This document shows positions 7,258 through 33,866 of a DNA stretch of 64,000 nt, one piece after another. A program made the position numbers and the translations under genes. The notes below the pieces were generated by a model. That model saw only the letters and a program-made list of their open reading frames with translations. It had not been told where the DNA came from and made no database searches. Within the stretch, counting starts at the first letter, position 1. Each line of letters begins with the position of its first letter. Location: the NCBI GenBank assembly GCA_049287205.1, contig JBAQFJ010000001.1, positions 122,042 to 186,041 on the forward strand, in the 5' to 3' direction. The DNA comes from Microgenomates group bacterium. GTDB taxonomy: Bacteria; Patescibacteriota; Microgenomatia; UBA10105; UBA927.

Positions 7258-7333
7258 AGTATATTCCTTTCACACCCTCCGGGTGTCGTCACTCGTACGT
7301 TTTTTCTCTATGAATCGAAAAAACTACGAATTA

Positions 7334-7361
7334 ACAAAAAAAACTCCCGCTTCAAGCGAGA
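7334..7361 (-). terminator. hairpin + U-run in the rplA-rplJ intergenic leader (attenuator/terminator)
   Basis: Minus strand: ctctcgcttgaagcgggag hairpin followed by a run of 9 T; lies in the L10 leader. Confidence 0.5.
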
Positions 7362-7466
7362 GAATGATGCATCAGCTGTGTGACGCATATGTTTTCCCTC
7401 GGTAGGATTTATGGATTTCTCCGCCTACTGTCTCTAGGACGATGGTTATTTATACCATTTCGAGCG

Positions 7467-8363
7467 TTATAACGCAAGTTTGATTCCTGGTCCCATGGTT
7501 GTTGTGATCGTCACTTTGACGAGTTTGCTTTTTCCCATGGCGGTGAGCACTGCTTCAATGTTTTCTGTTAGTTGTTTTTCTTCAAATGACACTTTTCCGA
7601 CTGCCATGTGAATGATTGGATTGTCCGGTTCGCTCTTGTAATTAACCTGTCCCGTGGACAATTCTTTCACCCGTTTTTCGATATCGGTTGTCACTGTTCC
7701 TGTTTTTGGATTTGGCATCAGGCCTTTTGGTCCCAACACGCGGGCAACTTTGGCAAGTTTTGGCATCATGGATGGGTGAGCAACCAAGATGTCAAAATTG
7801 ATTTTTCCTGCGGTAATCTCTTCAATGACTTTGTCATCAGCAACAACCACGCGAACCTGTTTTCCTGTTCCATGTGGGAGTGTTACGCTACCACGGATAT
7901 CTTTTTTGTCGCCAAGCGTTAATGGATTGATGTTGATATGCATTTCAACCGTGCCGTCAAATTTTGTGATGCTGGTGAGTTTGACGAGTTTGAGTGCTTC
8001 CGGAAGGGAATACGACTTGTTTTTGTCAACCAGTTTTGCCGCTTCCTGATATTTTTTTCCGTGTTGTCGTGGTCCTGACACCTTTTTTTTCTTACTTTCT
8101 TTTGCCCCTTCGCCGTTTTCCACTTTATCCATCATGGCTTTGACTTCTGGTTTGAGTTCATCACCCTCGACCAAAACGGTGCGTTCGCCACCCTTGAGGT
8201 TGACGCCTTCGACTTTGGCTTTTTTGGCTTTTTTGCCTTCACGCCGAGCGTCAGCTTTTCGTTTTTGTTCTTTTTCTGCTTGTTCGTCACCAAGAATAAC
8301 TTTTCGTACTTTTCCCATATGATTACTCCGTTTTAATACCCATGCTTCGTGCAGTGCCTGCAA
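7467..8363 (-). CDS. rplA: 50S ribosomal protein L1 with Lys/Glu-rich N-terminal extension
   Basis: L1 core from [12 protein letters not shown]... to the C-terminus; about 90 aa K/E-rich extension upstream. Alternative start MGKVRK at 8318, 4 nt after the rplK stop. Confidence 0.85.
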
Positions 8364-8748
8364 CGACTTTCATGGCTGCTTCTACGTTGGTTGTGTTAAG
8401 ATCTGGTAATTTGTCTTTTGCAATTTGTTCTACCTGTGCATGGGTAAGCGTTGCAACGATTTCTCGTCCTGCTTTGCCACCGGCTTTATCGATGCCAAGC
8501 ATGCGTTTGATCATGGCTGCAACTGGTGGAAGTTTGGTAACAAAGGTAAATGTGCGGTCTTCAAAGACGGTGATCACTGCTGGAATGATCTGTCCTTTGA
8601 GTTTTGCGGTTCGTTCATTGTAGGCTTTGACGAATTCCATGATAGGAAGTCCATGTTGTCCAAGCGCTGGACCTACCGGTGGGGCTGCGTTTGCTTCGCC
8701 TGCCTTAAGGTTCAATTTAATGAGTGTTTTGACTTTTTTTGCTGCCAT
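8323..8748 (-). CDS. rplK: 50S ribosomal protein L11
   Basis: ORF 8323..8898; conserved start [33 protein letters not shown] is at 8748. Confidence 0.9.
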
Positions 8749-9098
8749 ATATTTTTGGGAAAACGCGGGTTTCGAAGAGAAAAGAGGAGTGCTCTTAGGT
8801 TCAATTCGAAACGGTTTTCGTCTCTTCCTCCATACTCGATGTATAGAAGTGAAAATGATTATATCAAGGAGCGTACCCCTCGTAAAGGGGGAATTCAATA
8901 AAAACCTATAGTTTATTGCGTCAGAGTGGTATAATCCCTCGGTAGTTTAAGAGAAAGGGCCACGGGATAAGACATATAAGGAGGTAAGATCGCACATTAA
9001 TAAATAGATCATGTTTGAATAAGCACACGTTTCGTGTACTTTTGTTTTTTCGCCGGTCGATGATAATCGACTCATCTATGTTTTGCCAAGGAGAAGAA

Positions 9099-9800
9099 AT
9101 GAACACCAAAGGAAAGAATAAATGGAATTTGGCTGGAGCAATTGCCGGGTTGAAAACAGCACAGGACGCTGTCGTCGCGCGACGTGATAGTTTGAACGCC
9201 TATGGCGAGTACGAACGAAGGCTCTATGAAGCAGCCTCTTTCATCAATGATGAGGGTCGGCCTATTGCAAAAGCTGACGCGAATACACTCGCCGGTCTGT
9301 TGATTCTTGATTGCACCAAAGCAATCCAAGCATTCGTCCGACAGATGCGCCGCAACGGGCTGCCTGCCTCTGTGGAAGTTCTACCGGTACAAAGACGGGG
9401 AAACGAGGTTGCAAATCAGATTCGTGCACGAAGCTTTGAGGGTGATGAACGACCGCCGTGTCTATTGACGACATTTGCTAAGGATAATCCGGCGCTTGAA
9501 GACACGCTCAGCTACTTTTTGCTCACTCCATCCGTTGGGTGGTTAATCACTGTCCGCATCGGGGAAGTTAGGAAAAAGTTTACATTGCATGCAACTGTTG
9601 GTTTTCCATTCCCTGAATCGTTAGAGGACGACCTTGTTGCACGAATTCCGCAACATAAAGACAAAAACAGGCGATACCAAGCATTTCCTCGCTCTGTTGT
9701 GTTTTTTTATGGTGATCCTTGGGATCAACATTATGTGGATTCCGTTGATGGGATCGAGCCGTGGTTACAAGGCTGGTTGCGCCAGATAACACCTATCTAA
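9099..9800 (+). CDS. hypothetical protein (GC-richer than its surroundings)
   Basis: ORF 9015..9800; the internal ATG at 9099 has AAGGAG 6 nt upstream. No recognisable domain. Extended -10 (TGGTATAAT) near 8935. Confidence 0.5.
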   Translation: MNTKGKNKWNLAGAIAGLKTAQDAVVARRDSLNAYGEYERRLYEAASFINDEGRPIAKADANTLAGLLILDCTKAIQAFVRQMRRNGLPASVEVLPVQRRGNEVANQIRARSFEGDERPPCLLTTFAKDNPALEDTLSYFLLTPSVGWLITVRIGEVRKKFTLHATVGFPFPESLEDDLVARIPQHKDKNRRYQAFPRSVVFFYGDPWDQHYVDSVDGIEPWLQGWLRQITPI

Positions 9801-9904
9801 GTTTTTGAACATGAATAAACGAAAAAAGAAATCTAAAAGGAATGCATTATGTCTGCATTGTTGTTATTCCTTTGTGATGTTTCTTTTTCTTTCGTCAAGT
9901 TTTG

Positions 9905-9948
9905 ACCCCCGCCAAGGTATTGGTATTTTTGGTGGGGGTTTTGTTTTG
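9905..9948 (+). terminator. intrinsic terminator after the 9099..9800 gene
   Basis: acccccgcc ... ggtgggggt stem (one G.U) followed by tttgtttt. Confidence 0.5.
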
Positions 9949-9961
9949 GAAAAAAGTGGGG

Positions 9962-10009
9962 AAAATAAAAAATTTCTGTCGGTTTTAGCACGTTGGGTTC
10001 AACCGACAG
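9962..10009 (-). terminator. intrinsic terminator after the 10042..10569 gene (convergent)
   Basis: Perfect 9-bp inverted repeat ctgtcggtt/aaccgacag; the minus strand is followed by aaattttttatttt. Confidence 0.5.
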
Positions 10010-10041
10010 ACGGTAATAAAAAAAACGTGGAATTGTTTGAC

Positions 10042-10569
10042 TTAGCGTTCGTCTAAAAGTTTGATGCAGTTGGTATGCAAAGCATCAAGTGGTGAAGCTG
10101 GAGTAGTGATGAACAAATCTGTTAATGCTTGTTGCGCTTCCTCCAACTCTTGACGCGGCCGATCAATAGTAGAATAGATCAGAAATATCTGTAGCTGTTT
10201 GAGCTTTTCTTTCGGTTTTGTTTCAGACTTGATGAAGTTCGGGAGTGTATTCTTAAGAATGTTGGTAACGGCTGCGATATACGATATTTTTTCGGCGCGA
10301 TTGATCGTAACGTTGGACAAGAGCTCTTTGGGTAATTGCTTTCGCGCTTCAGCGACAATCAGGTCTTCCGGTGACAGGAACAGTGTGTCCATCGCAATGA
10401 CAGCGCCGCGTATTGGCAACACTCTGGCGTACAAAAAGAGTTCTCTGATAAGGTAATCATCAACATTTCTTTTCTTGTGTGTGACGTCCCACAACACACA
10501 AGTAAGATATTCATATGTTTGGTTGAGAGTGAATCTCATGCGTGCACCTCCGTAGTTTAATATATTCAT
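10042..10569 (-). CDS. hypothetical protein
   Basis: 175 aa; overlaps the upstream ORF by 29-59 nt in another frame. No recognisable domain. Confidence 0.45.
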   Translation of the reverse strand: MNILNYGGARMRFTLNQTYEYLTCVLWDVTHKKRNVDDYLIRELFLYARVLPIRGAVIAMDTLFLSPEDLIVAEARKQLPKELLSNVTINRAEKISYIAAVTNILKNTLPNFIKSETKPKEKLKQLQIFLIYSTIDRPRQELEEAQQALTDLFITTPASPLDALHTNCIKLLDER

Positions 10570-11215
10570 TGATAAGCGTTTCAGTCTTGTTCAGGTGTTC
10601 TTTTGCTGTTTTTGAACAAATTGATGATCGTGCATTCTGTACGTTATTTAAAATACGTTGCCACAAATCCGTTGATTCTTGCTGAAATGCTGCATTTCTT
10701 TGAATAAACGTCGTGATATGAGACGCTATTGTTTCCTGTTGTTTTCCATTTGCAGTTTTCCATTGAATTTGCAACAACGGTACAATGTTGTGTGCGTTCT
10801 CCACATGTAGAAAACTGTTAATGATCAGTATTTTTTCACAGTCACTTTTACTGATGATGAGCATTTGTTTGATGACCTTAAGATGTTCACGATTACAGGA
10901 AAAAACAAGCTCAATTGCTTGTGTCGCCAGATCAACATGCAGGTGACTTATTGCGAGTCCCATGGTATTGAGAAATGAATCTCTTGCGCGTTTGGATAAC
11001 AGAGTATAAGCAGGAAGTTCCTCGCTGATTAATATGAACATTTTTTGGTAAAAGATTGTTGAGCGACTGAGTAACAATAGATTTTTGGCATACTTCATGA
11101 TCAATTGTTGTTTCATAGGTCTTTCTCCTTTTTTGAAGCAATATGAAATGAGCGCATATGATAGACAGATAGTGCAAATATGGGATACCCATACTGGTAC
11201 ATAACTGTCTACCAA
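10511..11215 (-). CDS. hypothetical protein (C-terminal R-x6-H, HEPN-like motif?)
   Basis: 234 aa (TTG start in the track; internal Met about 33 codons in). C-terminus ...LRRCTHEIHSQPNI. Weak. Confidence 0.45.
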   Translation of the reverse strand: MVDSYVPVWVSHICTICLSYALISYCFKKGERPMKQQLIMKYAKNLLLLSRSTIFYQKMFILISEELPAYTLLSKRARDSFLNTMGLAISHLHVDLATQAIELVFSCNREHLKVIKQMLIISKSDCEKILIINSFLHVENAHNIVPLLQIQWKTANGKQQETIASHITTFIQRNAAFQQESTDLWQRILNNVQNARSSICSKTAKEHLNKTETLINEYIKLRRCTHEIHSQPNI

Positions 11216-11368
11216 TGAAAGAAGAGAAACCTATATCCACGTTTTTGTTAAAGAGCGTCGAAGCCATCTCTATAAAAGTACACAACCGATGCTATATATC
11301 GGCGAGAGGGAATTGACGCCCTTATTATAGTGCAAGAAGCTGAGAAGTCAAAAATAGCCTATAATACT

Positions 11369-11397
11369 TGACAAATGGGATAAAATAGCCTATAATA
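11369..11397 (+). promoter_or_regulatory. consensus sigma-70-type promoter TTGACA-N17-TATAAT
   Basis: TTGACA 11369-11374, 17-nt spacer, TATAAT 11392-11397. Embedded in a 16-bp direct repeat aaaatagcctataata (11352-11367 and 11382-11397). Confidence 0.55.
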
Positions 11398-11435
11398 TGT
11401 TTCTTAGTGTTTTGCCTGCCGGTGAGATGTGAAGA

Positions 11436-11462
11436 AGCGCCGTCAGCGGCGCTTTTTTGTGC
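11436..11462 (+). terminator. intrinsic terminator about 40 nt downstream of the consensus promoter
   Basis: agcgccg-tcag-cggcgct hairpin followed by tttttt. Confidence 0.6.
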
Positions 11463-11626
11463 TCAAGCGCAGGCTGAAACATACCCCGGAGCAATTTGGG
11501 GTGCTCTTTACCAACCAGGTAGACAACTCCTCTTAGAGAATACGCAATACGCCGGTATGTGAATGAACATGGTATTCGTTCTCATTCAGGCGTCTTGCCA
11601 AATTCTTGTTTTTAGAGGAGTAAAAG

Positions 11627-12082
11627 ATGGGAAAGTTATTCGGTTTAGCTTTTTTTGTATTCATCGGTTTTCTAAGCCTTTTCTTTTTTGGAAAACCCGT
11701 CCATTTTGTTGAACAATCAGTGCAAGCTGCAGTGGTTGTTCCCGCACAAGATGATCCTGTTATTGAAGCTCATATTGTTGTAGCTTGTGAGAATACAGTG
11801 TCGTCATACATGGGAGTTTTTGACGACTCTCAGACAGCTGTTGATAGTTGCAAAGAAATATTATTGCAACACTATACCCATCGCGGTATATGGCCAGGCC
11901 CACAGATGGTAACTACTAACTGTTCTGCGGCGCATCTTGCTGCAAAAGAGGTTTCCGAAGCATGGGCAGGTCTGAATTTTTCTTCTGCTAGTATTACATT
12001 TACATATAGAGCAGAAGACGCTCGAGAAATTCTCATGCAATATATGAAACAGGAGCGAGAATTGCTCGAGCAGGGTCTGTGA
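11627..12082 (+). CDS. hypothetical membrane-anchored/secreted protein
   Basis: 151 aa; hydrophobic N-terminal segment; GAGGAG RBS upstream. Confidence 0.5.
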   Translation: MGKLFGLAFFVFIGFLSLFFFGKPVHFVEQSVQAAVVVPAQDDPVIEAHIVVACENTVSSYMGVFDDSQTAVDSCKEILLQHYTHRGIWPGPQMVTTNCSAAHLAAKEVSEAWAGLNFSSASITFTYRAEDAREILMQYMKQERELLEQGL

Positions 12083-12310
12083 TGAGGAGAAAAAGAAAAC
12101 AATTCTATTGAAGAAAGCTAACCGGACTGAGAGATTTTCTCTCTTTTATTTGTTCTACCTGGTTGCTTTCTCTTCCACGTAAAAAGTTACTTTGCACGGA
12201 AAAGAAAGCACCACTTCGCATGAAGCTTCGCGGTGCACAGCAAACTGTTTAGAGTTTTGCAACCTGCAAGAAATTCCCACTCCGCTAAAGCTTCGCGGGA
12301 CACGGCTAGT

Positions 12311-13063
12311 TTACAATTTTGCCACTTGGAGGAAATCCAATTCCACTGGGGTTTCTCGTCCGAAGATGGAAACAAGGACTTTGACTTTGCCTTTTTCTTC
12401 GTCCAAGGAATCGATGGTTCCCAAGAAATCCGAGAACGGTCCGTCGGTAATTTTGACTGCTTCGCCGACAGAGAAACTGGTTTTGTATTTCGGAGCTTCA
12501 AGCGCCATGAATTTCATGATGGCTGCAACTTCTGGTGCAGAAATAGGTGTTGGTTTGTCTCCGGTTCCCACGAACGCAGTCACTCCCTGTGTGGTTCTGA
12601 CGGCAAGCCAAGAGATATCATTGAGAATCATGCGAACCAAAATGTATCCTGGGAATATCTTTTCTTTTTGTTCTTCTTTTTTGCCGTGTTTGACGGTAAC
12701 GATGTTCCTTGTTGGTACGATGATATCAAAGATTTGATCTTTGAGTTTCATGGTATCAATGCGTTGTTTTAAGTTTGTTGCGACTTTGTTTTCATGACCT
12801 GAATAGGTGTGAACGACATACCATTTGGCGTTTTCCGGCACGTCAGTGCGGAGGACGACTTGCGGTTCATCTTTGGTGATATCCAACTTTTTTATAGCAG
12901 CTTTCGTTTTTGGCGGAACTTCTACGACAGGTTTTACCTCTACCTTTTTTTCTTCAGCAACCGGTGCTTCAACAACAGAAGTTTCTTGTACCACCTCATT
13001 GGTACTTATTGGGTTATTGGTATTTATTGAATCATTTGTTATATCGTCCATATTATCTCCCAA
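12311..13063 (-). CDS. nusG: transcription termination/antitermination factor NusG with N-terminal low-complexity extension
   Basis: NGN domain KWYVVHTYSGHENKV and KOW domain GEAVKITDGPFSDFLGTI; about 75 aa T/N/E/K/V-rich N-terminal extension. Confidence 0.9.
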   Translation of the reverse strand: MGDNMDDITNDSINTNNPISTNEVVQETSVVEAPVAEEKKVEVKPVVEVPPKTKAAIKKLDITKDEPQVVLRTDVPENAKWYVVHTYSGHENKVATNLKQRIDTMKLKDQIFDIIVPTRNIVTVKHGKKEEQKEKIFPGYILVRMILNDISWLAVRTTQGVTAFVGTGDKPTPISAPEVAAIMKFMALEAPKYKTSFSVGEAVKITDGPFSDFLGTIDSLDEEKGKVKVLVSIFGRETPVELDFLQVAKL

Positions 13064-13361: not shown

Positions 13362-15128
13362 TTAGTTTGTTTTATAGACATTCCAGACACACGCGTTATG
13401 ACTTGGTTGGGAATAGGGGGTTTGTACTGTGTCACAGGTATCTCCACCAGTCGGACATTGAGACGCAAGTCCGCCGCCTGTGACACAACTGTTGAGTTTT
13501 GTGGCGCAACTTTTGGTTTTTTCATCCCATCCATTGCCAAACTCCCAAAATCTGATAGCTGATTCTACGTTTTCGTCTTTCCACGCGGCACATGTCTGTG
13601 CTGTATCGGCGAGGGTAGAAACGAGTGAAATGCCGAAACATTTCTTTCCCGCAAATGCCGGCGCATATTGAAATCGGTGAACTGTTTTGGCAAGGGAAAA
13701 AATACCGTCGGTGAGATTGCAGGCGTTCAATGTTCTGTTTGGGTCTATAATTTTTACCGCGTCCGCAACATCTACCCAGTCTGATTTGAAGTAGGGAACA
13801 ATGTTATTGATAATGGATGCATTTACATCGCAGTTTGGCAAAGTGCTGCACCCGTCAAGATATTGATCAACGCCTGCAGTTTTAAACACCTTGTTTGGAT
13901 TAAACGCTCCTTCTCCATACATAACACCAAGCATGAGCGATGCGGGGACATTGTATGCGCTTGCTGCTGCCTCGATCGTTTCAATCAGTTTTGCTGAAAG
14001 TCCGAAGGAATTGTTTTTGAGTTTACATTCTGATTTGATGGTCAGTGTTGGAAGTGCGCCTGTGGTGCAGTCGGATGGTGTTGTGACATCTTGTTTACAT
14101 TTGTCGGATAAGCCGTATTTGTTTCTGAGGGCTTTGGGAAGTATTGCGCACTTCATATAGTTGGTTGCATCTTCTATTGCCTTCGTTCCAAGTGTGTGTG
14201 TTTTGATGTTTTGATTATCGCTGAACGCATTATCCTGTTCACCGCTCGTTTCATTTCCTGTGATGGTATGTGATACATGTGCGTATGTTTCTACGACGCC
14301 GCCGCTTTCCTGCACACGTTTTTGTTCTTCCTCACTTTTTAAGTAGGAGAGATCACCGCCTGCTGCGCATCCAGTAATGAGACAGTCCATGCTTTCTGCA
14401 TAGGGGGTAAGCTGTTTGGATGCAAGTGTTGCCTTGATAAGCCCGCCGGTACCAAAGATGCTTTTTAACAATTCCAGAAATCCGCCGGTATTGAAAAAGC
14501 CGCCAGTTGTTTTCACTGTTTTTGTTTCTTGTGTGTCACCTGTATCTGTTTCATCGCACAGCGGCGCATTTGCAATTTCCAACGGTTCGCGGTCTGTATT
14601 GTAATTGTAGTCTCCGTCAACAGGGGAGATGGAATATTTGCTGGTAATTGCAGCAGCAAATCGTGATGCTTGGTCGAGTGTAGAGAGTTCAGGAATGATT
14701 TCCGTTTTATATGCCTGTTTGCTTTCCTGCTCGACAATGGTGTTGTTCTCGTTGGTTTTGCAATACCGGGCGCGCCCTGAAATATACAAATTCTTTTCCT
14801 GATCAATCGTTTTTTCTTTGATGATATACGGAGTAAGAAAATGTACACCGTTTGCAAAAAAATTGGCAATTGTTTCCAGTTTTGGCACCTTAAAGTCTGT
14901 CCCCGTCGTCAAATTCACATCTTTTATGGTTATGGATATGGAAGGTTCTGTTCCACCGATGGAAAAAGGCACAGAGTTATCCAGCAGTACGTTTAGCGCG
15001 CCACCAGTATCGATTTGCCGAACGCTTGGGGAAGTGGGGATCGGAGTTGTTGTTTGTGCACGCACCGTATGTTCTGGTATAGCGCTCAGAGAAACAAGAA
15101 CAACGACAGCACAAAAAAACCGTTTCAT
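13362..15128 (-). CDS. secreted protein with putative lytic-transglycosylase (SLT-like) motif
   Basis: 588 aa; N-terminal signal peptide; Cys-rich C-terminal region; MLGVMYGEGAFNPN resembles the ES-x-FNP motif of SLT domains. Confidence 0.5.
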   Translation of the reverse strand: MKRFFCAVVVLVSLSAIPEHTVRAQTTTPIPTSPSVRQIDTGGALNVLLDNSVPFSIGGTEPSISITIKDVNLTTGTDFKVPKLETIANFFANGVHFLTPYIIKEKTIDQEKNLYISGRARYCKTNENNTIVEQESKQAYKTEIIPELSTLDQASRFAAAITSKYSISPVDGDYNYNTDREPLEIANAPLCDETDTGDTQETKTVKTTGGFFNTGGFLELLKSIFGTGGLIKATLASKQLTPYAESMDCLITGCAAGGDLSYLKSEEEQKRVQESGGVVETYAHVSHTITGNETSGEQDNAFSDNQNIKTHTLGTKAIEDATNYMKCAILPKALRNKYGLSDKCKQDVTTPSDCTTGALPTLTIKSECKLKNNSFGLSAKLIETIEAAASAYNVPASLMLGVMYGEGAFNPNKVFKTAGVDQYLDGCSTLPNCDVNASIINNIVPYFKSDWVDVADAVKIIDPNRTLNACNLTDGIFSLAKTVHRFQYAPAFAGKKCFGISLVSTLADTAQTCAAWKDENVESAIRFWEFGNGWDEKTKSCATKLNSCVTGGGLASQCPTGGDTCDTVQTPYSQPSHNACVWNVYKTN

Positions 15129-32696: not shown

Positions 32697-33866
32697 ATGA
32701 ACTATCTTATTATTATTCCTTTTGCACTACCTTGGAACTGGTCTGCTGATTATGAAAAAGAAACAGCGAAACAGTTGGCGAAGAAGCATACTGTCGTTGC
32801 GTTTTTAGTCGGAGAAGGATTTACGCTTTGGCAATATATCCGAGCCCCAAGAGTGCTTATACAGAAGATCAACGCGCATCTGTATGTGTATAAACCGTTG
32901 TATATTTTGCCGTTTCAACGGTTTTTGATTATACGGCATATCAATTTCCGTATAGCAGCATATCTCGTGCGATTATGGATTTGGTGTTCACCCATGAGGA
33001 GAAAGAAAAAAATCTACTGGTCTTTTTCTTTGCAATATGCGGTATTTCCAACGTATTTTGGTCCGCATTATTTTTCTATATATGACTGCGTTGACGCGTT
33101 TGTTACAGAAAATCCGCAGAGGCAGGTATTGTGGAAGCGATATGAGGAACGAATTCTTAAAGAATCGGATTTGGTTCTTGTTAATTCTAAGACACTGTAT
33201 GCGCAAAAAGTCCATAGTCACCCGCATATCGTTCAAACCGGTGAAGGACTGTTCAGCAAGGATATTTTTGACGCTCCGAGGAACAGGCAGGAACCAAGCG
33301 ACATTGCTGTTATTCCACACCCACGCATTACATTTATCGGCACTATTAACAACCGGCTGGATTTTTTTCTTATAAAAAAACTTGTTGCAATCACCCCTTC
33401 CTATTCGTATGTCTTTATCGGAGGAGAGGATCCTTTTTTTGACGGACATACGGAAACGGATTTTTCTAAAGAAATTGCAAAGCTTAAAACAATGCCGAAT
33501 TGTTATTTTCTTGGCAAGAAACAAAAAACAGAAATCCCCGCATATATCGGACAGAGTGACGTAGGGTTTATTCCGTATGACATCTCCCTCTTGTTTAACA
33601 AGTTTTGTTCCCCTATGAAGATTCAAGAGTATTTTTATATGGGAAAACCGGTGTTAAGTACGGCAATACCCGAAGTTACAGTATTTGTTCCACATGTTGC
33701 CTTATTTCATACAGCTCCCGAAGGCAAAAATCAGTTGAAACGATTATTGTCTACATCGTTTACCAAAAAACAAATTTTGCAGTTGCGCCAGATTGCCAGA
33801 AACAATTCTATTGCAAAAAAATGTCGGTATGTAGAAACAGTTTTACAGAAACATTATGTGTCGTAA
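32697..33866 (+). CDS. glycosyltransferase, GT-B fold (GT4-like)
   Basis: 389 aa; C-terminal ...SPMKIQEYFYMGKPVLST... E-x7-E-like motif. Confidence 0.55.
   Translation: MNYLIIIPFALPWNWSADYEKETAKQLAKKHTVVAFLVGEGFTLWQYIRAPRVLIQKINAHLYVYKPLYILPFQRFLIIRHINFRIAAYLVRLWIWCSPMRRKKKIYWSFSLQYAVFPTYFGPHYFSIYDCVDAFVTENPQRQVLWKRYEERILKESDLVLVNSKTLYAQKVHSHPHIVQTGEGLFSKDIFDAPRNRQEPSDIAVIPHPRITFIGTINNRLDFFLIKKLVAITPSYSYVFIGGEDPFFDGHTETDFSKEIAKLKTMPNCYFLGKKQKTEIPAYIGQSDVGFIPYDISLLFNKFCSPMKIQEYFYMGKPVLSTAIPEVTVFVPHVALFHTAPEGKNQLKRLLSTSFTKKQILQLRQIARNNSIAKKCRYVETVLQKHYVS

Follow-up and report, generated by a model that had tools for sequence, protein, structure and literature searches.

In hok mRNA, the fbi and tac elements give a fold-back of the 3' end onto the 5' end. 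Invertons and shufflons are DNA inversion switches that vary surface proteins, and Oliveira et al. 2017 is said to be a comparative-genomics study of chromosomal gene-turnover hotspots flanked by core genes. Pairing between the 5' and 3' untranslated regions of one mRNA is also known for icaR of Staphylococcus aureus (PMC3868564) and hbs of Bacillus subtilis (PMC5737220), and the rplK-nusG cassette is among the most conserved gene clusters in bacteria (PMC9514032).

We analysed a stretch of 64,000 nucleotides (the window) in which this cassette is taken apart. The flanking genes, the gene order and the L10 leader are those of the canonical secE-nusG-rplKAJL cluster, with secE preceding nusG, and with rplK followed by rplA, the L10 leader (Rfam RF00557 at 7328-7455), rplJ and rplL. 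Here, however, nusG and rplK are uncoupled, rplK has a promoter-like site and a leader of its own, and the intervening genes are partly antisense to the cluster. A first-pass annotation made from the DNA letters had placed four genes between nusG and rplK, and this is borne out: the distance is 3.5 kb, Pfam confirms both flanks, and four coding genes lie between them.

As in icaR, hbs and hok, a 3' segment of the mRNA is complementary to its own 5' leader near the ribosome-binding site, spanning the coding region. In icaR the 3' segment pairs with the Shine-Dalgarno sequence (SD) itself, whereas the partner predicted here from the sequence is a motif next to a distinct anti-SD strand; the scaffold is, moreover, reused for unrelated cargo, in two divergent units, in many lineages and at one locus. 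As in the turnover hotspots, a fixed interval between core genes gains different accessory genes without mobility genes of its own, but this interval lies inside one of the most conserved bacterial clusters, and a regulatory scaffold outlives its genes. The likeness to invertons and shufflons is that short inverted repeats bracket a segment linked to the expression of variable surface proteins.

Four coding genes in three transcription units

The four ORFs are all real coding genes; each has a diverged homologue against which dN/dS is 0.21-0.26 (orf1 0.26, orf3 0.21, orf4 0.21), compared with 0.07-0.22 for the neighbouring core genes. Products of 233, 165, 201 and 151 aa also appear in public gene calls on independent assemblies. 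While the existence of the four genes was called correctly at first pass, the starts of orf2 and orf3 were not; the better ones are 10539 (RBS GGAGGTG) instead of 10569 and 11116 (RBS AAGGAGAAAG) instead of 11215, and with these the two genes overlap by 29 nt. Among 5.8 billion and 1.8 billion sequences each ORF has only one to three homologues: three for orf1 (71-72% identity), one for orf3 (63%, directly upstream of an orf2 homologue in locus L085) and one for orf4 (60%, at the same position in loci L081/L082). None of the four proteins matches a family in Pfam, PHROGs, PADLOC, NCBIfam or the PDB sequences, and the membrane anchor of orf4 is confirmed, both as the annotation had it. Products of orf1, orf2 and orf3 are cytoplasmic, confined to the lineage and subject to purifying selection; the AF2 model of orf1 (pLDDT 50) is too low for use. 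Next to rplK, L082 and L087 have proteins of 205 and 209 aa that are probably distant orf1 paralogues, judging from profile and sequence alignment (hhalign P = 0.02, BLASTP E = 9e-5). The observation that orf1 is GC-richer than its surroundings is upheld by computation (48.8% against 42.1 +/- 2.3% for the 52 other window ORFs, z = +2.9, the GC-richest of the window). The AT-rich ORF is orf3 (z = -2.4), and it is orf1 (z = -2.3) and orf2 (z = -3.0) that fit the codon usage of the window most poorly.

The block consists of three self-contained transcription units, orf1 (unit C), orf3-orf2 (unit B) and orf4 (unit A), whose features are collected in Table 1.

Table 1. Features of the nusG-rplK interval and its flanks, in window coordinates
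Feature	Position	Strand	Evidence or remarks
rplK (ribosomal protein L11)	8323..8748	-	Pfam Ribosomal_L11_N and Ribosomal_L11; lower flank of the block
rplK promoter-like site and ~100-nt structured leader	8749..8886	-	promoter scan, folding, DNA conservation
Unit C promoter and orf1 leader	8927..9098	+	read from sequence; hairpins 9025-9037 and 9055-9072
orf1	9099..9800	+	233 aa; RBS GGAGAAG; cytoplasmic alpha+beta protein
orf1 intrinsic terminator	about 9904..9948	+	hairpin ACCCCCGCCAAGG/UUUUUGGUGGGGGU, then U-rich UUUUGUUUU
orf3-orf2 operon terminator	9976..10009	-	hairpin CUGUCGGUU...AACCGACAG, then AAAUUUUUUAUUUU; -14.8 kcal/mol
M3', unit B 3' element UCCACGUUUUUUUUA	10017..10031	-	complement of unit B leader motif
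orf2	10042..10539	-	165 aa; all-helical protein
orf3	10511..11116	-	201 aa; helical protein; first gene of unit B
Unit B leader	11117..11317	-	5' hairpin, motif M3, anti-SD/anti-start strand, inner long hairpin
Motif M3 GCUCUUUAACAAAAACGUGGA	11256-11236	-	within unit B leader
Unit B promoter	11324..11351	-	TTGACT-16-TATAAT; 11/12 match
Unit A promoter	11351..11397	+	TTGACA 11368-11373, TATAAT 11391-11396; spacing 17; 12/12 match
Unit A leader RNA	11403..11626	+	P1, P2, motif M, anti-SD, P4, SD
Unit A P1	11407-11482	+	apical hairpin 11431-11458 plus U-run
Unit A P2	11483-11502	+	leader helix
Motif M GCUCUUUACCAACCAGGUAGA	11503..11523	+	core 11512-11523; predicted to pair with M'
Unit A anti-SD	11526-11533	+	leader element
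Unit A P4	11536-11607	+	leader element
Unit A SD	11614-11621	+	leader element
orf4	11627..12082	+	151 aa; N-terminal hydrophobic membrane anchor, Cys-containing extracytoplasmic domain
Small hairpin GAGAGAUUUUCUCUC, then UUUUAUUUGUU	12129..12143	+	terminator scan; candidate weak orf4 terminator
M' UCUACCUGGUUG	12154..12165	+	exact complement of M core; 12-nt 100% inverted repeat I20
Strong hairpin between convergent orf4 and nusG	12164..12210		inverted repeat I4; 20-nt arms, 80% complementary
Relic nusG 3' end (...FLQVAKL*) and ~32 nt downstream sequence	12222..12286	-	direct repeat D7, spacing 65
nusG	12311..13063	-	Pfam NusG and KOW; upper flank of the block

Next to the block, rplK has a promoter-like site found by promoter scan (TTTACG-17-TATAAT with TG, 8886-8858); its leader folds with z = -3.6, and the DNA is kept in L001, L003 and L004 up to ~8867-8890. 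Unit C has an extended -10, TGGTATAAT, at 8927-8935, and its terminator folds at -25.5 kcal/mol (z = -4.4). It faces the terminator of unit B, which is kept in L085 and L087. That the block holds back-to-back terminators of convergent units (9905-10009) agrees with our folding, in which both hairpins fold well, each followed by a U-tract. The consensus promoter called at 11369-11397 is also there, at 11368-11396.

Units A and B diverge from one 80-bp promoter region and share an order of elements: a sigma-70-type promoter, a structured leader of ~200 nt with a conserved single-stranded motif (GCUCUUUAMC plus core), an anti-SD helix masking the ribosome-binding site, a long hairpin, the cargo, a 3' element of 10-14 nt that is the exact complement of the leader motif, and right behind it the terminal hairpin. 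This promoter-and-leader frame is previously undescribed. A duplicated box, AAAATAGCCTATAATA, flanks the unit A promoter as an exact 16-nt direct repeat (D11; 11351-11366 and 11382-11397), and the arrangement CCTATAAT...TTGACAAA...CCTATAAT is kept in L087, L082, L085, L022/L090, L092 and L018. Both hexamers of the unit B promoter are kept in L087 and L085 and are missing in L082, which is without unit B.

The unit A leader folds at -95.3 kcal/mol (z = -7.7). Compensatory changes, which fall in P2 and P4, affect 11 of its 60 pairs among four relatives (RNAalifold) and 7 of the 19 P4 pairs among seven lineages. In four relatives the promoter, the next 22 nt and the hairpins are nearly invariant, with cargo at most 60% identical or unrelated, and in all 11 readable cassettes the ORF after the leader encodes an unrelated lipoprotein or membrane protein. 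A covariance model of the leader (R1), run over 1.1 Mb, matched nusG-rplK gaps only, and antisense to nusG only; unit B leaders are matched weakly (window 11158-11256, minus strand; L085 379-474, plus strand). A 51-aa ORF that overlaps the leader is disrupted by indels in relatives. The unit B leader folds at -55.1 kcal/mol (z = -3.6); in this fold SD and AUG (~11134-11114) are both paired, with the anti-SD/anti-start strand (~11235-11217) opposite them. Its DNA is 75% identical to that of L001; L001/L087 lack orf3, and there this leader directly adjoins the orf2 homologue.

Complementary elements at the two ends of units A and B

In unit A, M and M' are exact partners of 10-14 nt, 420-650 nt apart, in the window/L082, L087, L091, L020 (twice), L014, L012 and L073, and their co-variation extends over eight sequence variants of this orf4-type unit. 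In the first seven cassettes 11 of 17 M:M' pairs have changed on both sides, a value reached by none of 500 shuffles, and in slid registers the paired fraction drops to 36-49%, although the search for M' sites was itself a search for the complement, so that these pairing statistics are inflated. The steady position of M', past the stop codon and before a hairpin, argues against chance. In L018 and L022/L090 the leader is present and M' was not detected. In unit B, M3 and M3' form inverted repeat I7 (14 of 15 positions complementary); the window and L085 share an exact 11-mer pair, AAAAACGUGGA / UCCACGUUUUU, for which L087 has the co-varying AAAACGUAGA / UCUACGUUUU, giving two sequence variants with partners 650-1225 nt apart. 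Unit C may have a counterpart, in that a segment of the orf1 leader, CAUGUUUGAA (9012-9021), has a complement, counting G-U pairs, in UUUGAACAUG immediately past the orf1 stop, with CAUGUUCGAAA / UUUUGAACAUG in L087; this is the weaker case, TTCGAA being a palindrome. Such complementarity is not a genome-wide habit: among the ~58 window ORFs that reach 100 aa, just two, orf4 and one more, show a 5'/3' complement of at least 12 nt.

The reading we favour, at roughly even confidence, is that of an old, lineage-wide variable locus in Candidatus Gottesmanbacteria (CPR), built of three autonomous units, of which A and B would have mRNAs closed from 5' to 3'. In the finished mRNA the 3' element would pair with the leader motif, and the transcript would thereby form a closed loop, stacked on both the anti-SD:SD helix and the hairpin at its end. 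Folding of full-length transcripts is consistent with this, with M:M' at P = 0.84 and 0.83 (0.84 for the window M') and anti-SD:SD at P = 0.98 and 0.66. The SD is masked in the predicted full-length fold with or without M', so a regulatory effect of closure is not evident from thermodynamics. If the hairpin at 12129-12143, which folds weakly (z = 0.5), terminates efficiently, the orf4 mRNA would end 4-10 nt short of M', which would count against closure. The stronger hairpin beyond it forms in the MFE fold of 12150-12250 on the minus strand (-31.8 kcal/mol, z = -2.5); its arm CTTTCTCTTCC is kept in L082, L087 and L091, and a U-tract after it is absent on both strands.

Duplexes of the complementary elements are equally stable on the opposite strand, so co-variation cannot separate pairing in RNA from inverted repeats in DNA. 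It is conceivable, if unlikely, that the elements act in DNA, for site-specific inversion (phase variation) or cassette exchange. They bracket genes as inverted repeats of 10-14 bp and co-vary as repeats kept identical by recombination would; envelope proteins are the usual targets of phase variation; and the brackets persist as the cargo is exchanged between lineages, with two tandem cassettes in L020. Yet there is no recombinase gene in or beside the gap, and all cassettes, from more than 12 lineages and assemblies, have one orientation relative to the promoter. What the repeats bracket is the ORF with part of the leader, not the promoter, and their positions, adjacent to the anti-SD strand and immediately ahead of the terminator hairpin, are meaningful in RNA. 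A length of 10-14 bp is also short compared with known invertase sites.

Gene turnover between nusG and rplK

Closure of the mRNA is one part of the favoured reading; the other is the age and variability of the locus. The first-pass annotation took nusG and rplK to be normally tightly paired, and in 14 of 33 other Microgenomates loci (median gap 250 bp) the gap is indeed at most 160 bp. In the close set, 37 loci that each contain both genes and are mostly from Gottesmanbacteria, non-adjacency is instead the rule, with gaps of at least 400 bp in 34 (0.4-5.3 kb, median 1924 bp). The 139 gap ORFs comprise a few recurrent families, namely a TM-anchored Ig-like protein (17 loci), an MFS transporter (8) and a TAT-signal lipoprotein (6), and 80 singletons. 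L022 has an IS200-like gene separating its cassette from nusG. Relatives hold subsets of the four genes in different combinations (orf1 and orf2 in L001/L087, orf4 in L082, orf3 and orf2 in L085), which points to an old, locus-specific site of gene turnover among relatives rather than an insertion from outside.

The annotation had proposed a discrete, horizontally acquired island, that is, a foreign 3.5-kb segment inserted once between nusG and rplK. The interruption of the pair and the uncharacterised genes stand, as do the two composition outliers (orf1 and orf2, also in codon usage) and a gene content unlike that of the nearest relatives, whereas a recent foreign insertion is not supported. 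A recombination or duplication event at one border is marked by a 65-nt tandem duplication of the nusG 3' end, of which the relic is ~96% identical to the nusG end of L001 and the working copy (12287-12345) differs at synonymous sites, and IS200-like genes are present in this gap in L016 and L022. Against an island, the split recurs in nearly all close loci, and neither an integrase nor a transposase in this genome's gap, nor an attachment-site-like repeat pair at the two ends of the block, nor anything related among viral contigs was found. Homologues occur only in sister lineages: those of orf1, orf2 and orf4 map to this very locus on every contig that extends into a flanking gene, and that of orf3, on a short contig, lies beside an orf2 homologue and the same leader. 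The block is moreover a mosaic of three units with differing conservation patterns, and its promoter-and-leader scaffold, common to distant Microgenomates, is kept at this locus in 10 or more distinct lineages. The island is largely refuted as a single recent event, and we consider it quite improbable.

Leader, cargo and the ribosomal operon

Slightly less probable still is that the leader acts as a riboswitch or as a protein-binding translational operator, with a downstream complement that is incidental, as it would be if it belonged to a bidirectional terminator. Such a role would suit a long leader of several helices with conserved unpaired nucleotides and an anti-SD:SD expression platform, strictly tied to envelope-protein genes next to secE. 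Eight changes of sequence, however, are not expected of a fixed ligand or protein site, and the conserved single-stranded motif is exactly the part with a co-varying partner; P1 and P2 sequences are conserved in close relatives only, and the leader has no Rfam match at E <= 5. That unit A is a hok/sok-like type I toxin-antitoxin system, its small membrane protein silenced by fold-back pairing of the mRNA ends, is very improbable: a fold-back with masked SD as in the fbi/tac pairing of hok, small and N-terminally hydrophobic cargos (only 66 aa in L087) and convergent nusG transcription that could supply antisense RNA would fit, but most cargos are lipoproteins of 84-151 aa with lipoboxes and extracytoplasmic domains, not pore-forming peptides of ~50 aa, unit B has the same design for cytoplasmic helical proteins, a dedicated antisense promoter was not identified, and PADLOC gave no match.

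What the data show is the gene block, its spread through the lineage, the turnover of its genes, the conserved leader and the co-variation of the two elements; for a variable locus with closed transcripts we infer, in addition, pairing in the RNA, an effect on translation or stability, and a route of cargo exchange. Until a factor, a processing step or a physical cue opened the loop, the cargo would be masked from translation and/or shielded from nucleases. It is replaced while the scaffold stays, most likely through recombination among relatives inside the scaffold and the core genes on either side, and in unit A it is always a small envelope protein, here the membrane-anchored orf4. With a promoter-like site and a leader in front of rplK, rplKAJL need not rely on read-through from nusG.

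The nusG-rplK gap and its genes

The minus strand of the window carries, in order, rplL, rplJ, the L10 leader, rplA, rplK, a 3.5-kb gap (the block), nusG and secE. The four ORFs that the first-pass annotation had named in the gap are all present, with orf1 and orf4 on the plus strand and the overlapping orf3-orf2 pair on the minus strand. The starts of that pair had been set too far upstream, and shorter versions, which overlap by 29 nt, are favoured. The consensus promoter of orf4 (12/12 match) and the convergent terminators after orf1 and orf2 proved real, and orf1 is indeed GC-richer than its surroundings (48.8%, z = +2.9, the highest GC among window ORFs). Local codon usage is fitted worst by orf1 and orf2 (codon-fit z = -3.0 for orf2), while orf3 is AT-rich (GC z = -2.4) and orf4 is typical in composition. 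A spurious-ORF reading is ruled out by dN/dS, which is 0.21-0.26 for all four ORFs (each against its nearest homologue) and marks them as genuine genes. No sizeable further ORF was found in 8749-12310. An additional small ORF, gene-called in a public assembly (L094, 868-1113), overlaps the two terminator hairpins and is likely to be spurious.

Features of the nusG-rplK gap and neighbouring genes, in window positions
Feature	Position	Strand	Remarks
L10 leader	7328-7455	-	Rfam
rplA	7467-8318	-	L1, 283 aa
rplK	8323-8748	-	lower flank of gap
CCTATAG/CCTATAAT box	8905-8911		upstream of orf1
orf1		+	unit C
Small ORF	9805-10056	+	81-83 aa; probably spurious
orf2	10042-10539	-	165 aa; RBS, homologue alignment, independent public gene calls
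orf3	10511-11116	-	201 aa; RBS, homologue alignment, independent public gene calls
orf3-orf2 promoter	11351-11324		divergent
16-nt direct repeat	11351-11366; 11382-11397		AAAATAGCCTATAATA, exact; flanks -35 box of orf4 promoter
orf4 promoter	11368-11396		consensus
Unit A leader	11403-11626	+	
First 57 nt of leader	11403-11459	+	nested in hairpin P1
51-aa ORF in leader	11407-11562		rejected as gene
Unit A motif core (M)	11512-11523		CAACCAGGUAGA
orf4		+	unit A
Complement of core (M')	12154-12165		before large hairpin
Tandem duplication	12222-12345		65-nt period
Outer nusG-end copy	12222-12286		non-functional
nusG	12311-13063	-	upper flank of gap
588-aa protein gene	13362-15128	-	between secE and sugar-nucleotidyltransferase gene
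Gene with 12-nt complement	32697-33866	+	GATAACTGCAGA

The view that none of the four proteins belongs to a recognisable family was borne out, as Pfam, PHROGs, PADLOC, NCBIfam and PDB sequence profiles gave no match. In searches of 5.8 billion proteins and an exhaustive search of 1.84 billion representatives, each had one to three relatives at 40-76% identity, all from closely related Microgenomates/Gottesmanbacteria genomes, and because these close relatives were so few, profile building reached no further. Homologues of orf1, orf2 and orf4 lie in the nusG-rplK interval wherever the contig extends to a flanking gene; that of orf3, on a 2.9-kb contig, has an orf2 homologue beside it, together with the same leader. 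Genes of 205 and 209 aa beside rplK in two relatives (L082 and L087) are probably distant orf1 paralogues, and paralogy between orf2 and orf3 was rejected (BLASTP E = 1.9). The orf4 protein combines an N-terminal membrane anchor with conserved cysteines. For the orf2 protein an all-helical fold is predicted (pLDDT 71), whose structural neighbours are just generic ARM/HEAT-like ones, and the AF2 model of orf1 (pLDDT 50) was unfit for a fold search.

Two genes outside the gap also drew our attention. The extra length of the unusually long L1 is a Lys/Glu-rich low-complexity stretch in the N-terminal region, ahead of the usual L1 fold. The 588-aa protein encoded beside secE carries a signal-like segment at its N-terminus, lacks a Pfam match, and is kept at the same position in relatives (562-588 aa, 48-67% identity, dN/dS ~0.22).

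Gene turnover between nusG and rplK

Judged by its NusG relatives, the window falls within Candidatus Gottesmanbacteria. Across the 37 close loci having both nusG and rplK, the two genes lie a median of 1924 bp apart, with at least 400 bp in 34 and tight spacing in L011, L019 and L043 only; in the more distant Microgenomates loci (n = 33) the median is 250 bp, and 14 have 160 bp or less. A TM-anchored Cys-rich Ig-like protein occupies the gap in 17 loci, an MFS transporter in eight and a TAT-signal lipoprotein in six, together with occasional IS200-like and PaaX-like genes and 80 singletons. Gene content in the window differs even from that of the closest relatives, where we found a 209-aa gene, orf1, orf2 and a 66-aa membrane peptide (L001/L087), a 205-aa gene and orf4 (L082), or orf3, orf2 and an unrelated 269-aa gene (L085). 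The nusG-rplK locus is therefore a hotspot of gene replacement among these relatives. Few conserved gene cassettes of bacteria are as frequent as the rplK-nusG pair (PMC9514032), and its systematic disruption across a CPR class is notable for that reason.

IS200-like Y1 transposase genes occur in the gap of two relatives, L022 and L016 (1179-1862 in L016). In L022, with features at 8709-9356 (+) and 9990-10979 (-), the transposase gene lies between nusG and a leader-driven lipoprotein ORF of merely 84 aa, for which no 3' complement of the leader motif was found; an apparent RpoD-like sigma factor gene, recognised by eye, sits just upstream of the leader's promoter.

The block had been suggested to be a horizontally acquired foreign island, a view that is only in part supported. 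Composition outliers and a content unlike that of the nearest relatives speak for acquisition, but the reading as a single acquired island fails, because integrase, recombinase and transposase are absent from its four proteins (searched against Pfam, NCBIfam and PHROG), att-like direct repeats are not found at both borders, and viral contigs hold no relatives of the leader pattern or of the orf1 and orf2 profiles. The last result also led us to reject a phage or plasmid origin. Composition is heterogeneous within the block, orf1-orf3 being outliers and orf4 typical, which argues against a single origin, and instead of the empty site expected in close relatives the gap is occupied in 34/37 loci. 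Integron gene cassettes are promoterless, carry an attC site and have an intI integrase nearby. Here there is no integrase, the unit has its own promoter in the window and several relatives, and the repeats lie at the two unit ends rather than in a local attC palindrome, so this identity was rejected.

At the nusG border a 65-nt-period tandem duplication, without a match at the rplK border, covers the last nusG codons and ~32 nt downstream, spanning the stop codon. Its outer, non-functional copy (...FLQVAKL*) is ~96% identical to relatives' nusG ends, and the working copy codes for identical residues but differs at synonymous sites. The duplication is the footprint of a duplication or recombination end-point, and is consistent with exchange by recombination within conserved flanks.

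The leader and its cargos

Between orf3 and orf4, comparison with L087, L082 and L085 revealed near-invariant DNA from the promoter through a leader of ~200 nt, while the flanking proteins are at most 60% identical or unrelated; conservation of the regulatory RNA frame exceeds that of the proteins expressed from it. The leader of unit A (orf4 with its promoter, leader and 3' end) has a predicted fold (z = -7.7) in which P1 is a long 5' hairpin, P2 is a second hairpin that shows compensatory changes, the motif GCUCUUUACCAACCAGGUAGA stays mostly single-stranded, an anti-Shine-Dalgarno (anti-SD) strand is predicted to pair with the orf4 ribosome-binding site, and P4 is a further long hairpin, in which 7/19 pairs are compensatory across seven lineages. 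The leader of unit B, the orf3-orf2 operon, repeats this plan: its 5' hairpin is accompanied by the motif GCUCUUUAACAAAAACGUGGA, by an anti-SD/anti-start strand and the SD, and by a long hairpin inside.

Over 8700-12400, Rfam 15 at E ≤5 returned only chance-level microRNA and viral models, and the leader had no match at gathering score. SRP RNA, 6S RNA, RNase P RNA, tmRNA and a mimic that binds L11 or L1 were discarded on sequence misfit, and were unreported by Rfam/ARAGORN; a small protein gene was discarded too, as the 51-aa ORF is broken by non-triplet indels in relatives. Unexpectedly, the conserved scaffold appears to be an undescribed RNA/DNA element with strong co-variation.

We extended the leader family with an nhmmer profile, a metagenome pattern scan, which contributed L091 and L092, and a covariance model built on the unit A leader (R1). 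On the expected strand R1 clearly matched the window, L001, L085, L022, L091, L092 and L018, and more weakly L014, L012, L020 and L073; it also weakly matched the unit B leader in the window and L085. L082 and duplicate contigs, outside the sources searched with R1, carry the same leader. In the 1.1 Mb searched, all expected-strand matches with flanking genes on the contig fall within the nusG-rplK gap, antisense to nusG. An envelope protein directly follows the leader in 11/11 readable cassettes (leader and downstream ORF, the cargo). These cargos, mutually unrelated by BLASTP, are lipoproteins with lipoboxes (L091, L092, L090, L020 twice, L018 and L014), single-anchor or signal-bearing proteins (orf4 and its homologue, L073 and the 66-aa L087 peptide) and a multipass membrane protein (L012).

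The promoter region has further features. The 16-nt direct repeat, or the CCTATAG box that recurs at relatives' promoters, could be a second promoter or operator. The first 57 nt of the leader comprise an invariant 22-mer followed by a GCGCCG/CGGCGC hairpin with a U-run, and resemble a small RNA that is complete from promoter to terminator, or else an attenuator; the equivalent hairpin in L091 is without the U-run.

Co-varying ends and their possible function

The core of the unit A motif (M) has an exact complement (M', 12/12 nt) after orf4, directly before a large hairpin. A lone 12-nt match within 3.9 kb is about what chance would give. The relation recurs, however, at the same relative position with different sequences in other lineages, amounting to eight unit A variants: CAACCAGGUAGA in the window and L082, CAACCAGGUGA in L087, CCAGGUAGGAA in L091, AACCAGGCAGAAGU and, in a second tandem cassette, AACCCAGGCAG in L020, CCAGGUAGUG in L014, UGACAACCACAUGC in L012 and AACCAGGUAGGAA in L073. 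In a register-anchored alignment, based on seven unit A cassettes whose partners had been located by searching for complements, 84% of cells pair and 11/17 pairs are altered on both sides; this co-variation was reached by 0/500 shuffles, and slid registers were 36-49% paired. Unit B shows a complementarity of 14/15 nt in the window. Its pair, across 650-1225 nt, has two variants, namely AAAAACGUGGA/UCCACGUUUUU, shared by the window and L085, and AAAACGUAGA/UCUACGUUUU in L087. In orf1-type units the complement is weaker and has a TTCGAA palindrome at its centre.

Such complementarity is no general habit of the genome, as among ~58 window ORFs of at least 100 aa a 12-nt 5'/3' complement was found only in orf4 and one other. 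That other gene, in which the 250 nt upstream were compared with the 160 nt downstream, may have arisen by chance, as ~0.5 such cases are expected per window, or may be a further unit with paired 5' and 3' ends. A looser motif scan gave mostly chance matches, with a downstream complement of at least 10 nt in ~10% of them inside and outside gaps alike, and contributed solely L073 and the second L020 cassette. In L020 (10650-11780, -) two leader-plus-lipoprotein cassettes stand in tandem, each with its own co-varying pair; the cassette can therefore be arrayed.

Folding of full-length transcripts predicted both long-range helices (P = 0.84 and 0.83), with the SD masked as well. The simplest and most likely reading is that the units work by mRNA closure. 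Each unit would be a self-contained cassette whose mRNA closes upon itself, the 3' element pairing with the leader motif beside the anti-SD:SD helix and stacking on the terminal hairpin, so that the closed transcript would be compact, translationally masked and probably nuclease-resistant. Pairing between 5' and 3' ends of an mRNA is known from hok. Further precedents, with pairing of the two UTRs, are icaR (PMC3868564) and hbs (PMC5737220). As in these, units A and B have complementary segments in the 5' leader and 3' end of one transcription unit; in units A and B the two segments co-vary. The block falls within known kinds, a turnover hotspot flanked by core genes and mRNAs with predicted 5'-3' UTR pairing. 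A connection between closure and envelope or secretion status, prompted by the strict envelope-protein link next to secE, is speculation.

In the main rival reading the repeats have their role in DNA, where they would serve inversion or cassette exchange. This rival accounts equally well for co-variation and cargo swapping, inverted repeats do bracket the segment, and duplex energies compared on both strands showed no strand bias, with which it is compatible. Yet the gap has no recombinase, the cassette has one orientation in every lineage and, at assembly level, in same-species repeat assemblies, and the repeats occupy RNA-functional positions. A riboswitch or protein operator fits less well than mRNA closure. 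So does a type I toxin-antitoxin system; hok/sok-like toxins are single TM helices of ~60 aa or less opposed by an antisense RNA gene, whereas orf4 has 151 aa, most cargos are lipoproteins of 84-117 aa, PADLOC gave no match and no antisense promoter was found.

CPR/Patescibacteria are largely uncultured, little is known about their gene regulation or cell-surface variation, and their surface presumably serves host interaction. In these bacteria one of the most conserved gene junctions has become a dedicated turnover site in a whole class, occupied mostly by envelope-protein genes and orphans. Rfam lacks the regulatory frame, whose co-variation suffices to justify a new RNA family. If the pairing were merely a structural quirk, the finding would be no more than an ordinary islet of orphan genes in a variable intergenic region. 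The co-evolving 5'/3' pairing offers a testable hypothesis of post-transcriptional control or cassette exchange in experimentally hard organisms. We tentatively raise the possibility of a nusG-rplK 'plug-in' system in Microgenomates, in which a conserved promoter-leader-terminator frame, its ends matching via a co-evolving 10-14 nt pairing, would receive unrelated, exchangeable cargos, mostly surface lipoproteins; the pairing would either gate translation so that only complete transcripts are translated (RNA closure) or mark borders for recombinase-independent cassette exchange or inversion. By either route such a system, if true, would give ultra-small symbiotic bacteria a new means of cell-surface variation.
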